Positions 6,001 through 19,356 of a stretch of 19,356 bases of DNA are shown in pieces. The first letter of the stretch is position 1; each line of letters starts with the position of its first letter. The DNA comes from Elusimicrobiota bacterium. GTDB taxonomy: Bacteria > Elusimicrobiota > Elusimicrobia > Elusimicrobiales > UBA9959. The position numbers are program-made. The stretch spans positions 1-19,356 of the forward strand of contig JBAXKK010000050.1 of assembly GCA_037137395.1 (NCBI GenBank), in the 5' to 3' direction.

Positions 6001-9000
6001 GCTGCGTGCAGAAGCGAGGTTACGGTGGACGGGGCGACGCCGGCGTCCGGGAGCCAGGTCGAGAACGGCAGGGTGGCTGATTTAGCCAGAATGCCGATAA
6101 GTATGAGCACCGCGGCCGTAAGGGCGATAGGCTCGCCGTGTAGAAGCCTCAGGTCCAGCGTGCCCTTGTCAAAATAGATTATCAGAATGCCGATAAGCAT
6201 GCAGAGCGCTCCAAAAACGGTCACAAGAATCGTCTTGTTGGCTTTGGAGACGTCCCTGTCAGAACGGAAAAAACCCACCAGTCGCCAGCTGGCGAAGCCG
6301 GTCATTTCCCAGAACACATACATCCATATAAGGTTGGCGGAGAAGACCAAGCCCATCATGGAGCCGAGGAACAGGACCACCATGGCGTAATACTCGGTCT
6401 GGTTGTCGTAATGCGAGATATAATCCACGGAATAGATAAGGATTATGGCGCTGACGAAAGAAGAAATGACGGCCATGAAGACCGAAAGCAGATCCGCGCT
6501 GAGCACAAAATCAAAGCCCAGCGGGAAGCTTAAGGAATAGGTCGCGGTCAGGCCGGTTAATATTTGCGGAATCATTAAGGCGGCGGCGGCGAAGGTCACA
6601 AGTCCAAGCGCGACGGCGTACGCGTTGCGGGCTTTGACAGATATTTTAGCGGCTACGGGGACTAGAAGCGAGCCTATTATCGGTGCTGCTACTGCGATTT
6701 TTAGTGTGGTGACTAGGTCCATAGATTAATTATACAAAAAACAGAAACATCTCCTTGGATAATATATCTAATAACATTCATTAGCAAAACTTATGTCCAT
6801 GGTACGGCTGATTCGTTTGCCATAAGCTTTAGGCCATAAGCCACAGGCAGATTTGCTGCCATAAATTATAAGGAAACTCCTAAAAAGTCTATGGCTTACG
6901 GCCTATGGCGCGGCTGGAACAGCCGCTTATGGCACCAATCATAGCACTGCGCGCTATGATTACAGCGGTATATTCCCCGTGTGCGCGTGAGAGCCGGGCC
7001 TGCGCTTGCCCGCCAGCATGCGGAACGCGGTTATAAGGCGCAGGCGCGCGGTGGCCGGTTCAATAATCTCGTCCAGTGATCCAGTGGAAGCCGTTTGATA
7101 GGGCGAAGCGAACTTGTCTGAGTACTCTTTGGCCAGCTTCGCTCGCAGCGCTTCCCGGTCCTCTTCTTTGGCTTCCTTTATCTGCCGGGAGTAGAGGATC
7201 TCCACGGCGCCCCTCGGGCCCATGACGGCTATTTCTGCTGACGGGAGAGAAAAATTCAGATCGCCTTTCATCAGTTTGGAACTCATGGCGATATAGGCTC
7301 CGCCGTAAGCCTTTCTGAGCACGAGCGTCACTTTAGGAACGCTGGCTTCGGAATAGGCGTAAAGGAGTTTTGCGCCGTGACGGATTATTCCGCCGTGTTC
7401 CTGGGCCACGCCCGGCCAATAACCTGGCACATCCACTAGTGTTAATATGGGTATATTAAAGTTATTTAAAAACCTGACGAAGCGGGCTGCCTTGTCGCTT
7501 GCGTTGATGTCCAGGGCGCCGGCCATATGCGCGGGGTTGTTGGCTATTACTCCCACCACAGCTCCTCCAAGACGCATGAAGCCTGTGACGATATTCTTGG
7601 CGAAATCGTGGTGCACTTCAAGGAACCTGTGGTCGTCGGAAAGCCACCAGACGATGTGATGGACGCGGTAAGGCTTGCGGGGATCCACTTCGCAAAGCTT
7701 TTCAAGAAGCGGGATCTTGCGGTCGATCGGATCATTGGTTTCATGGGCGGGCGGGGCCTCGTAGCGGCTGGCGGGCAGGAAGCTGAGCAGTTCTTTCAGC
7801 TGGCGGAAGCAGTCAGGCTCCGAATTAGCCACAAAATGGCAGACGCCGGATTTTGAGGCGTGGGTCATAGATCCGCCCAGGGTCTCAAAATCCACTGATT
7901 CTCCGGTCGCGGCTTTCACGACTTCGGGACCGGTGACGAACATGTGGCTGATGCCCTTGACCATGAAAACGAAGTCAGTAAGCGCTGGCGAATAGACCGC
8001 GCCGCCGGCACAGGGGCCGACTATAATCGAGATTTGCGGGATGACGCCTGAAGACTTGGTGTTGCGGTAGAAGATCTCGCCGTAGCCGTCGAGGCTGTCC
8101 ACGCCCTCCTGGATGCGGGCGCCGCCGGAATCCAGAATGCCGATTACCGGCATACGGGCTTCAAGCGCCATATCCATAATGTTGGCGATCTTGTCGGCGT
8201 GCGTGCGGCCCAGAGATCCGCCCAGCTGGGTGAAGTCTTCCGAGAAAAGCGCTATCGGGCGTCCGTTTACCCGTCCGAAGCCGGTTACTACTCCGTCGCC
8301 TTTAATGTGTTTATCCTTGATACCGAAATCAGTGCAGCGCGATTCCATCAGCAGGCCTATCTCCTGGAAGGAACCCTCGTCTACCAGATAATTTATGCGC
8401 TCCCTGGCGGTGAGCTTTCCCTTCTTTTTCTGGGCTTCTATCTTGTCTGGCGAGCCGCCGGCTGCCGCAAGCGCTGTCAGCTCCCTGAATTTCTTTAGGG
8501 ATTCCGGGACCACTCTGATTTTCTTCGGGTGGCTTTTTTGGCCGGCCGCTTGCGCGCTCGCGCCGCTTATCGGGTCATCCATTAAATCGGACATAGTTGA
8601 TCTCCATGATACAGGTTATCGTTTGCCATTTGGGCGTCGCGCCCGCCATAGGCCATAAGCCATAGGCCGTAGCAGATACGGAAGTGACTTTTAAAAGATA
8701 GTTTTATTTTAGCAAGTTTGAAGGGGCTTGTCCGCTTTTCCGCCGAAGGTGGATCCGCCGGTCTTATTGGCGGGCGCTGGCTATAGATATGAACCAACCC
8801 GGTTCCGGGGCGAAAGTGGCCAGGCTGAACGGCGGACTGCCCAACTCTTCATAGCGCTTCATGGCGGCTTTCGAAAACTTAGGAGCGTCCTCCGCCAGGT
8901 TTACATCCAGCAGGTCGGCTTTAAGGCCGAGCCCCAAAGCCTTTAATAATGCTTCCTTTTGAGTCCATAGGCATGTCGCAAGGTGGCAGGTATCAGGTGA

Positions 9001-18000: not shown

Positions 18001-19356
18001 TTAGCGTCGTGTGTCTTACGCCTGAAGGTGTAGACGCCCTTAAGCCTGAAGTTTAACGGCGGGGTGTCCCAGGTCTCAGGCTTGGCGTTGGCGTTCAGAA
18101 AATCTATTTTCTCGCGGAGGTCGGTCGGGGTCTTGGCAACTATGGAAACCCCCCACTCCCGCTGCGGTTCGGCGTTCATCCGGGCAGCAAAAAGCGACAT
18201 CGGATAGGCCTCGGGCAAGTTCAGGAAGGCGGACTCCGCGAGCGCTTTGGCCTCGGCCATAACGGCTTGTGGCGTTGAAGCGGTGAAGGTAACGGCCTCA
18301 CCCTGCAGGGCGGAGAACGGCGTCTTCGGATTCTCCGCAACGGACTGGTGACCGGTGGGCAGTGACTGGTTAGCCGTGCTGTCTTGCTGCCGCGCTGTCT
18401 TGCTGTCGTACTGTCTTGCTGCCGCGCTGTCCGGCTGTCCGGCATACTCTTCCATGGTCACATGAAAATTAGTTCCGCCGAAGCCGAAGGACGATACGTT
18501 CGCTCTTCTTATGCCGCTGGCTTTCCAGGGCTCAGCCTTGGTTATCACTTTAAAAAGGTTCAGGTCGATGGCGGGGTTGGGCCTGTCGCAATTGATGGAT
18601 GTTGGAAGAGTCTTGTGGTGCAGGGCTAAAGCCGTCTTTACCAGGCTGACCGCGCCGGCGGCCGCCTTGGCGTGGCCTATCTGGGATTTGACAGAGGTTA
18701 GTCCGAGTTTCCTGCCGCTTTTTATGTGGGGTCCAAAGATATCTTTAAGCGCTTCCACTTCCGCGGCGTCTCCGACTTTAGTGGCCGTGCCGTGGGCCTC
18801 GACAAAATCCACTTCCCCGGGACCGTAATCCACCTGCGCGAAGGCGTTTTCTATGGCCATTTTCTGGCCCTTGGGATTGGGGGCCGTGATGCCCTTCCCC
18901 TTTCCATCCGAGGACGCTCCAACGGAATTTATCAGCGCGTAGATCTTGTCCCCGTCTCTCACAGCGTCCGAATATCTCTTCAGTATATATACCGCCACTG
19001 CTTCAGCCATGACGAAACCATTAGCCCGCTCGTCAAAAGACCAGGAGCCGTCCGCAGAAAGCGCGCCTATCTTGCAAAACTTGACGAAAGCGGGGGCGGA
19101 CATCATCTCATCCGCGCCGCCGGTTACCGCCATGTCAAATTTACCCGAGCGCAGGCCAAGTACCGCGTAGTCCAGGGCGGCCAGCGAGGAGGCGCAGGCC
19201 GCGTCCAGGGTCATGTTGGGACCTTTAAGGTTAAAAACATTGGCTATCCGGCCGGCGGTGACATTAGACAGCTCTCCGGGCATGGTATCTTCGGTGATCT
19301 TAAGTATATTCTGGTCCATCTGCCCCTCGTATTCCTCCAGGAGGGTTTTTTGCTGG

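Follow-up and report, generated by a model that had tools for sequence, protein, structure and literature searches.

The window analysed here is a contig of 19,356 nucleotides (JBAXKK010000050.1, assembly GCA_037137395.1) from a member of the Elusimicrobiales, and its reverse strand carries a PfaA-like megasynthase gene of Type R (11736–19355). The open frame encodes 2539 aa in the order KS1-AT-KS2-ACP-ACP-KR-DH and is cut at its 5′ end by the end of the contig. On the same strand follow genes for a Na/Pi cotransporter (9946–11550), an Sfp-type phosphopantetheinyl transferase (PPTase; 8764–9708, with a likely start at 9519) and a single-chain acyl-CoA carboxyltransferase of the PccB/MmdA type (6960–8594). 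The cotransporter has no homologue in any other synthase locus compared and is thus regarded as a local insertion, outside the synthase system. Among 66 synthase loci, 64 have a PPTase gene within 3 kb on the downstream side and 61 have a carboxyltransferase gene within 4.5 kb. Promoter and terminator scans yielded signals at chance level only.

Pfam places a KS at residues 17–256 of the protein, the AT at 455–767, a second KS after it, the KR at 1962–2184 and the DH at 2267–2532. The first-pass annotation had read the order as KS, AT, a KS/CLF-like domain, a blank stretch of 630 aa, KR and DH: its KS, AT, KR and DH stand, whereas a pair of ACPs lies in the blank stretch, and the CLF label is contradicted by an intact Cys-His-His triad. 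The best NCBIfam match is TIGR02813 (PfaA), at 703 bits against a cut-off of 1010 for this 5′-truncated protein. The C-terminal part of KS1 that is present (18456–19355) finds its best PDB matches among the KS domains of type I PKS, and Cys54, His188 and His228 are unchanged in all 58 aligned proteins. The acyltransferase (17055–18002) is characterized by the active Ser554 and by a HAFH motif, which we take to denote malonyl specificity. KS2 (15231–16778), the proposed substitute for FabF, has FabF as its top PDB matches and closest relative among solved structures; it keeps Cys1114, His1262 and His1302 and is therefore not a CLF. The complete triad is seen in 49 of 58 aligned proteins; among 145 distant relatives, 137 preserve it.

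The two carriers, ACP1 (14682–14906) and ACP2 (14328–14552), correspond to two PP-binding stretches (Pfam, E 1e-9) and form a tandem duplication, visible as a 300-nt repeat with 95% identity and a period of 354 nt; relatives harbour between one and six copies. Thr1518 (codon 14802–14804) and Thr1636 (codon 14448–14450) occupy the position of the phosphopantetheine serine. The ketoreductase (12756–14213) consists of a catalytic part with Tyr2155 (12756–13478) and of the stretch following the tandem ACPs, which appears to be its structural half. The PKS-type dehydratase (11739–12572) displays His2289, a histidine in 53 of 58 aligned proteins, and Glu2459, a glutamate in 57 of 58. PKS-type dehydratase domains usually carry an aspartate at the latter position.

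Six-frame profile searches of the genome bin (98.9% complete, 7.7% contamination) bear out the earlier claim that this gene holds the only KS and AT domains. The single Acyl_transf_1 match lies inside the megasynthase frame, and ketoacyl-synt matches are confined to the megasynthase, a piece on contig C38 and a 417-aa frame on C123 that had already been noted as a thiolase. Likewise, ACP_syn_III_C gives no match above cut-off in this genome, in agreement with the reported lack of a FabH-type gene, and the residual fab operon on C86 comprises plsX-fabG-acpP-rnc without fabH, fabD or fabF, the fabH/fabD slot between plsX and fabG being closed. At C12:17216–17347 there remain 46 codons of a decayed FabF-type gene. 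AcpS, FabG, FabZ, AcpP, PlsX and LpxA are present alongside the megasynthase, and in a crude motif scan the motifs of a biotin carrier and of a biotin carboxylase turn up on C34 and C12, respectively. The C38 piece had been taken for the N-terminal part of the same gene. Its upstream genes are syntenic to those of relatives. Its 269-nt overlap with the window end is only 93.3% identical, and 16 of the 18 mismatches fall on third codon positions, which identifies the piece as an allele of a second strain. The bin is a strain mixture.

The same pattern extends across the order. The best acyltransferase match falls in a frame of at least 917 aa in 73 of 74 genomes, and in 67 of 73 it is the only AT match; the extra matches, examined in five of the six genomes that have them, belong to other PKSs, to a weak AT next to a gene of radical-SAM type or to a foreign-looking fragment. 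Models for fabF score above cut-off in none of 53 order genomes; outside the order, 15 of 27 genomes from the phylum pass it. FabH-family matches occur in six of the 53, at 52–88 bits as against 107–130 for the FabH of FabF-bearing genomes. The closed single-contig genome G064 repeats the AT, fabF and FabH pattern. FabG and AcpP are each retained in 31 of 32 genomes, and FabZ and LpxA/LpxC are retained as well: these proteins still need a KS and an AT. Furthermore, 11 g9 genomes contain an accessory stand-alone KS pair and no AT other than that of the synthase, the cluster having been read in one of them. The proposal that a PUFA-synthase-type enzyme acts as primary fatty acid synthase is thus upheld at the level of genome content: stand-alone FabD, FabF and AccA/AccD were not found across the order, and the operon stands in their place.

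The downstream carboxyltransferase had been described as a fused AccD-AccA following a PPTase gene. Both genes are in place, but the fusion label does not hold, as the protein scores 698 bits with TIGR01117 against 76 with AccD and 48 with AccA. It is the only carboxyltransferase of this genome and the sole one in all four order genomes compared, whereas AccD- and AccA-sized frames are detected in the FAS II genome G030.

Of 459 ACPs in the family, 433 have threonine instead of serine as the phosphopantetheine-site residue, proteins with a fused PPTase included; in alignments it coincides with the DS serine of carriers of solved structure. Among 36 relatives whose PPTase is fused, 34 contain no Ser-ACP, and the motif around the threonine is nearly invariant and tandemly amplified. 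The neighbouring PPTase, the proposed activator of the carriers, probably attaches phosphopantetheine to threonine. Helix II of the Thr-ACPs has a net charge of −1 compared with −6 in AcpP, which fits the need for a hand-off between the two. A separate AcpS is encoded in four of five genomes, whereas in G068 only the operon PPTase was detected. Some relatives contain, besides a fused PPTase, a reductase of NMO type in cis, and the family includes an archaeal member and is also present in genomes with their own FabF.

As for enoyl reductases, FabI and FabK were found in none of the 36 order genomes searched, but most genomes of the phylum that do have FAS II lack them as well, so that their absence is no marker of auxotrophy. 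In G076 and G128 fabI lies directly upstream of the synthase. A search for FabV matched none of the control genomes and carries no information. The FabK-like NMO listed by the first-pass annotation is at best remote: where it matches TIGR03151 it scores 19 bits, the cut-off being 453. The 508-aa protein is distantly FabK/FabX-like, shows no alignment to the reductase that the relative P0078 has in cis and remains a minor candidate. A FabK identity for the NMO matches was rejected: the two in G064 are presumably IMP dehydrogenase and dihydroorotate dehydrogenase. In this order the reductase is probably an acyl-CoA dehydrogenase working with EtfAB, the present candidate; in the genome studied here the dehydrogenase/Etf genes lie apart from the fab genes.

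In eight genomes of genus g8, KS2 is dead or deleted, and FabZ and a ~410-aa acyl-CoA dehydrogenase of fab-operon type are both missing from all eight; in those with an intact KS2, FabZ is found in seven of eight and the dehydrogenase in eight of eight. The co-loss is confined to two clades on an unfinished quick tree and accordingly counts as one or two events. Two genomes deviate from it: G064 has KS2 and FabZ intact without the ~410-aa dehydrogenase, and G182 (93% complete) shows KS2 motifs without a FabZ match. Coupling of KS2 loss to loss of FabG and AcpP was considered and rejected, as only G040 lacks both and seven of the eight retain both. One g8 subgroup seems to have lost full elongation.

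These observations favour, with somewhat better than even confidence, a scheme in which the operon is the order's primary machine for fatty-acid initiation and condensation, a type I/type II hybrid. Malonyl-CoA would be made by the operon's carboxyltransferase together with the biotin carrier and biotin carboxylase encoded elsewhere. The AT, in place of FabD, may then charge with malonyl both the in-cis ACPs and, acting in trans, stand-alone AcpP. Chain start, the weakest step, would fall to KS1, the tandem Thr-ACPs, KR and DH in place of FabH. The FabF-like KS2 is envisaged to accept the chain and condense it with malonyl-AcpP, leaving it on AcpP, where FabG, FabZ and a trans enoyl reductase would complete the cycles and PlsX and LpxA/LpxD would take the products. 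For this reductase the scheme has FabI in genomes with fabI next to the synthase and, in this order, probably the acyl-CoA dehydrogenase/EtfAB. Counted in favour of the hybrid are the order-wide displacement of the stand-alone genes, the sole carboxyltransferase, the retained AcpP-dependent enzymes, fabI beside the synthase in G076 and G128, the FabF-like KS2 beside a PKS-like KS1, the co-loss with FabZ and the dehydrogenase, the g9 genomes with a KS pair and the synthase AT as sole AT, and the helix II charge of the Thr-ACPs; counted against it are the one or two events behind the co-loss, the deviating G064 and G182, the salvage ligases and the acidobacterial FabD/FabF described below, the E. 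coli S36T result, the eight KS2-less g8 genomes, the lack of FabI/FabK and the distance of the dehydrogenase/Etf genes from the fab genes in this genome.

The two KS domains of PUFA synthases serve early and late elongation. A self-contained type I synthase, in which both KS domains would work on the in-cis Thr-ACPs only, with a trans reductase and finished chains passed to AcpP or PlsX, would still be the primary source of fatty acids. Relatives with an in-cis NMO-type reductase and fused PPTase, the KS2 triad conserved in distant relatives, the archaeal member and the occurrence in genomes with their own FabF speak for it, but it leaves unexplained the retention of FabG, the loss of FabZ alongside KS2 and the source of the AT for the accessory KS/ACP clusters; it is doubtful, and the synthase is best read as a hybrid working with stand-alone AcpP. 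It is rather improbable that fatty acids are instead imported via FadD and Aas while the product of the synthase is a special lipid or polyene, or is limited to the 3-hydroxyacyl chains that go into lipid A. FadD-like and Aas-like ligases are encoded in all five genomes tested, so salvage is possible; there is no in-cis ER domain, nor any FabI or FabK in the order; and an acidobacterial order combines the same synthase type with FabD and FabF, indicating an accessory role there. The eight KS2-less genomes would fit salvage best, and the two tested hold two Aas-like genes each (by frame size; those of G040 were also scanned). Yet FabG, FabZ, AcpP and the carboxylase are retained, the synthase AT is almost universal in the order whereas its spread in Acidobacteria is patchy, DegV is absent from all five genomes tested, and most FAS II-bearing genomes of the phylum do without FabI and FabK too.

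Very little probability attaches to the idea that the Thr-ACPs are never modified and act as docking elements or spacers, with all chemistry on stand-alone AcpP and the PPTase serving AcpP. The S36T variant of E. coli ACP cannot be phosphopantetheinylated (PMC3340395) and G068 has only the operon PPTase; however, the separate AcpS of the other four genomes, the scarcity of Ser-ACPs among fused-PPTase relatives and the near-invariant, amplified Thr motif argue otherwise. Finally, divergent stand-alone fab genes might have been overlooked or lie in assembly gaps, since most assemblies are drafts and the bin is mixed. This is largely refuted and retains hardly any likelihood: the same models detect FabD, FabF and FabH in sister lineages, Ketoacyl-synt_C matches in a closed genome lie in the synthase only, and the fabH/fabD slot is closed.

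Enediyne PKSEs are iterative KS-AT-ACP-KR-DH enzymes that lack an ER and have their PPTase linked or fused; they have a Ser-ACP and one KS and make polyenes in secondary metabolism. Their layout resembles the KS2-deleted forms of the synthase. The gene itself is already in print as the Type R ‘secondary lipid’ synthase, described in 2011 by Shulse and Allen from Elusimicrobium minutum, Koribacter, Solibacter and Roseiflexus (PMC3098273). The match covers the single pfaA homologue, its order KS-MAT-second KS-tandem ACP-KR, the PPTase gene behind it and, in some cases, a carboxylase gene. That account terms the second KS a CLF, lists three to six ACPs and no DH, does not contain the word ‘threonine’, leaves the product unassigned and does not include Type R when it suggests core synthases (PMC3098273). 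The present synthase differs in its intact second KS, its Thr-ACPs and the absence of detectable FabD, FabF and FabH; the intact KS is read as a revision of the CLF annotation, not as exclusion from Type R. Nor is the enzyme accessory to a complete FAS II, as it is in the acidobacterial genome G201. PfaA of omega-3 PUFA synthases shares the KS-MAT-tandem ACP-KR core, but here the extra KS, PKS-type DH and Thr-ACPs are added, the PfaA model is matched below cut-off, no pfaB, pfaC (KS-CLF-DH2) or pfaD (ER) adjoins and the genome has no other KS or AT, whereas Pfa hosts retain a complete FAS II (PMC3098273). Compared with FAS II, condensing and malonyl-transfer activities are fused in one giant protein, and FabH, FabI and FabK are missing.

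Bacterial membrane fatty acids are attributed to FAS II, or to FAS I in Corynebacterineae, with Pfa-type enzymes as accessories (PMC3098273). If the hybrid reading is true, it would add a third way of making everyday fatty acids in bacteria: a ‘secondary’ synthase recruited into core metabolism order-wide, with one operon replacing FabH, FabD, FabF and AccA/AccD in an order that has a cultured member. Thr-linked phosphopantetheine, if real, would break the serine rule of carrier proteins and provide an orthogonal carrier/PPTase pair, and at least one archaeal family member would bear on fatty acyl chain synthesis in some archaea. A wider proposal is put forward tentatively, at well below even confidence: a third architecture in which a PfaA-derived megasynthase starts chains on Thr-phosphopantetheine carriers and delivers them through a fused FabF-like KS to AcpP, with acyl-CoA dehydrogenase/Etf as enoyl-ACP reductase, the same Thr-carrier family, self-primed by fused PPTases, making acyl chains in sulfate reducers and Thermoplasmatota archaea. 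In the literature consulted, mostly titles and abstracts, no statement of a core role for Type R, no description of a Thr-carrier family and no report of phosphopantetheine on threonine was found. New here are the Thr-ACP family and the co-loss of KS2, FabZ and the dehydrogenase in eight genomes. The 2011 proposal of a core role was restricted to Type S (Desulfobacterium autotrophicum) and Type M (Renibacterium) and was made because fabA and fabZ were missing (PMC3098273). Type S has the layout ER-KS-CLF-AT-KS-ACP3-KR, with the ER in cis, and the suggestion concerned a single genome and a missing dehydratase; in the present case it is condensation, malonyl transfer and carboxyltransfer that have been displaced order-wide, whereas FabG, FabZ and AcpP stay. 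Among the matches of the synthase family is a 3896-aa Desulfobacter protein whose layout is similar to that of Type S.

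The synthase, a giant PfaA-like protein of Type R, is encoded on the reverse strand at 11736-19355 as an open frame of 2539 aa that is cut by the contig end. The feature is real and its gene family already known: in the available parts of the defining paper, Type R was established with E. minutum as KS-MAT-CLF-ACP4-KR plus a PPTase, and a core role was suggested for Types S and M only (Shulse & Allen 2011, PMC3098273). Excerpts of two further papers group the E. minutum KS with cis-AT PKSs of anaerobes (PMC3250452) and regard related genes as possible remnants (PMC4882568). The Pfam domains follow the order KS, AT, second KS, two PP-binding domains, KR and PKS-type DH; the 630-aa stretch that the first-pass annotation had described as blank in Pfam contains two tandem acyl carrier domains, encoded by a repeat of 300 nt with a period of 354 nt and 95% identity. 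A Na/Pi cotransporter gene, the PPTase gene and the carboxyltransferase gene follow in this order on the same strand. Among 66 loci, some of which come from one genome more than once, 64 have the PPTase and 61 the carboxyltransferase downstream of the synthase. Homologues of the cotransporter are absent from the other synthase loci compared, which marks it as a local insertion. The C38 contig piece previously read as the N-terminal part of the gene does represent the same locus, and derives from a second strain, since nine similar contig-end overlaps occur in the bin and its upstream genes recur at loci of related synthases; its 269-nt overlap with the window end carries 18 mismatches, 16 of them in third codon positions. 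Directly after the carboxyltransferase, a run of membrane-subunit genes, presumably of complex I / Mrp type, occupies 340-6722 (reverse strand) and finishes with a small-subunit-like gene.

The host genome (98.9% complete, 7.7% contamination) has one Acyl_transf_1 match, within the synthase frame, and ketoacyl-synt matches in that frame, in the C38 piece and in a 417-aa frame on contig C123 only, in agreement with the earlier statement that its only KS and AT reside in the giant gene. No FabH domain scores above the cut-off in this genome. The fab operon on C86, plsX-fabG-acpP-rnc, is indeed reduced, without the fabH, fabD and fabF of the plsX-fabH-fabD-fabG-acpP-fabF-rnc operon of FAS II relatives. 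The genes for LpxC, FabZ and LpxA lie together on C32, AcpS is encoded apart from the operon PPTase, and biotin-carrier and biotin-carboxylase motifs are present (motif level only). A stop-flanked relic of a FabF-type gene at C12:17100-17353 joins a short N-terminus-like stretch to 46 C-terminal codons, the middle being absent, and an open frame of 4731 codons lies at C17:10697-24889.

The distribution was surveyed in a sample of 201 genomes from the phylum, including 74 of the order; the compared genomes are kin and mostly drafts, and absences mean 'not found in those searched'. An AT match is present in 73 of the 74; the top one lies without exception in a frame of at least 917 aa, and 67 of the 73 genomes have no second match. 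In five of the other six (G178 left out) the additional matches belong to other PKSs, to a weak AT neighbouring a radical-SAM-type gene, or to a plsX-fabD fragment. This fragment (L178, G082:C37) lies on a short foreign-looking contig and is probably foreign to the bin, whose own fabG-acpP is on C5. The weak stand-alone acyltransferase (L176:1063-3454 and L177, from G052 and G120) is located between a small gene, an enzyme gene and a third gene, which we take from motifs to be PqqD-like, radical-SAM-type and kinase-like. The AT matches listed from outside the class fall in frames of 282-358 aa throughout, a listing that leaves out 65 weaker rows. Searches of 80 genomes from the set (53 in the order, 27 others) detected fabF above cut-off in 0/53 versus 15/27, and in none of the six other class genomes bearing a synthase-sized AT frame; FabH-family matches, all weak, occur in 6/53. 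The operon carboxyltransferase is the sole one in all four order genomes tested, while AccD and AccA-sized frames occur in the FAS II genome G030. FabG and AcpP are each kept in 31 of 32 order genomes. In an acidobacterial order with patchy synthases, by contrast, a short-frame AT is present in 45 of 46 genomes, not counting five unpublished ones, and in the acidobacterial genome G201 the synthase coexists with stand-alone KS genes.

All 58 aligned proteins share the Cys-His-His triad of KS1 and the active serine of the AT. KS2 keeps its triad in 49 of these, with Cys and last His both replaced in five and the domain deleted in four, and is intact in 137/145 aligned proteins from 150 representatives (50% clustering). 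Among solved structures it is nearest to FabF enzymes, whereas KS1 is nearest to type I PKS domains. KS2 is thus predicted to be catalytic, whereas the second KS fold of Type R in the available part of PMC3098273 is a CLF, and the CLF-like label of the first-pass annotation does not hold. In genus g8, KS2 is deleted in four genomes and its motifs are absent from four; these eight have neither FabZ nor the ~410-aa acyl-CoA dehydrogenase (0/8 each), which occur in 7/8 and 8/8 g8 genomes with KS2 motifs. The co-loss represents one or two events, as the KS2-less groups form separate clades at an unresolved fork in a quick, unfinished tree. G064 is an exception, with KS2 and FabZ present and the dehydrogenase absent. 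The four KS2-deleted synthases (L015, L151, L152, L153; genomes G040, G020, G023, G190) are ~2100 aa long, retain the order KS-AT-ACP-KR-DH with one ACP and sit on a long branch; their genomes are without FabZ and any acyl-CoA dehydrogenase.

Thr1518 and Thr1636 of the two ACPs align with the phosphopantetheine serine of solved ACPs. Threonine occupies this site in 321/321 motifs at related loci and in 433 of 459 ACP domains of 145 representatives (Ser in 17), both sets being biased towards Thr by partly Thr-containing queries; 20 loci picked by AT match have the same residue. The available part of PMC3340395 describes the S36T variant of E. coli ACP as one that cannot be modified, and the ACPs could be envisaged as unmodified docking domains, a very improbable reading. 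A PPTase is fused to the synthase in 36/150 representatives, 34 of which are without a Ser-ACP (six fusions confirmed by Pfam), and AcpS is kept beside the operon PPTase in 4/5 genomes, from which we infer that a dedicated PPTase modifies the threonines. Helix II of the Thr-ACPs has a net charge of -1, versus -6 in AcpP. FAS II enzymes prefer an acidic ACP helix, and the near-neutral helix would fit poor recognition by them. Named family members include Desulfobacter, Polyangiaceae and a Thermoplasmatota archaeon (5/10 clusters looked up named an organism); the archaeal protein, P0027, comprises 3055 aa, three Thr-ACPs and a fused PPTase.

The operon is the sole source of KS, AT and carboxyltransferase, while enzymes that depend on AcpP are retained. 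In established FAS II chemistry FabG, FabZ and LpxA depend on acyl-AcpP intermediates, for which a KS and an AT are the only source, so the synthase would have to act on AcpP in trans. We lean, at somewhat better than even, towards a hybrid in which the synthase works together with stand-alone AcpP and FAS II enzymes; a self-contained type I synthase is unlikely. Genes missed by the searches are a scarcely credible account. A secondary lipid made by scavengers, quite unlikely overall, accords with the presence of FadD and Aas and suits the KS2-less group best; the fatty acids of E. minutum reportedly include saturated odd-chain and iso-branched ones, and this would speak for de novo synthesis. 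In the hybrid, KS1, the Thr-ACPs, KR and DH would most likely prime the chain, and KS2, the best candidate for the role of FabF, could condense it with malonyl-AcpP, transferring it onto AcpP with no need for a thioesterase.

The enoyl reductase gap is phylum-wide, because FabI (none in 36 order genomes searched) and FabK (above cut-off in 0/60) are also absent from most of the phylum's FAS II genomes. A fabI gene lies directly upstream of the synthase in G076 and G128, and in part of the distant relatives an NMO-type domain is present in cis. The gene after rnc in the fab operon encodes an acyl-CoA dehydrogenase, in most cases accompanied by etfB and etfA, both in FAS II genomes (G030, G021 and G168, and by coordinates also G060, G062, G102, G110, G122, G146 and G196) and in synthase genomes (G054, G058, G076, G128 and G142); loci with this arrangement include L119:9092-12408, L126, L127, L128, L129 and L132. 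The host's own copy (C21:31126-33770, 66% identical) is not beside fab genes, and its dehydrogenase scores best, below cut-off, as acryloyl-CoA reductase AcrC. Acyl-CoA dehydrogenase/EtfAB is a candidate enoyl-ACP reductase.

The literature searched, which covered few subscription papers and not the genome paper of E. minutum, yielded no statement on order-wide displacement or Thr carriers, and the available portions of PMC11257099, bioRxiv 10.1101/765248, PMC2613244 and PMC8049014 contain nothing on the matter. Order-wide replacement of FabH, FabD, FabF and AccA/AccD appears new, as do the putatively catalytic FabF-like KS2 with its co-loss pattern and the family-wide threonine carriers; all three are directly testable. 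In genus g9, a stand-alone KS pair scoring below cut-off occurs in 12/25 genomes; the one cluster examined (G068, L130:4507-17761) has two KS, two ACPs, a glycosyltransferase and a lipid A-type acyltransferase, no AT, and resembles aryl-polyene clusters. Genomes of family f7, with neither true fabF nor synthase, contain a cluster of SDR, FabH-like, SDR, hot-dog-fold-like and divergent KS genes (L133:3963-8391 in G150), possibly another substitute pathway.
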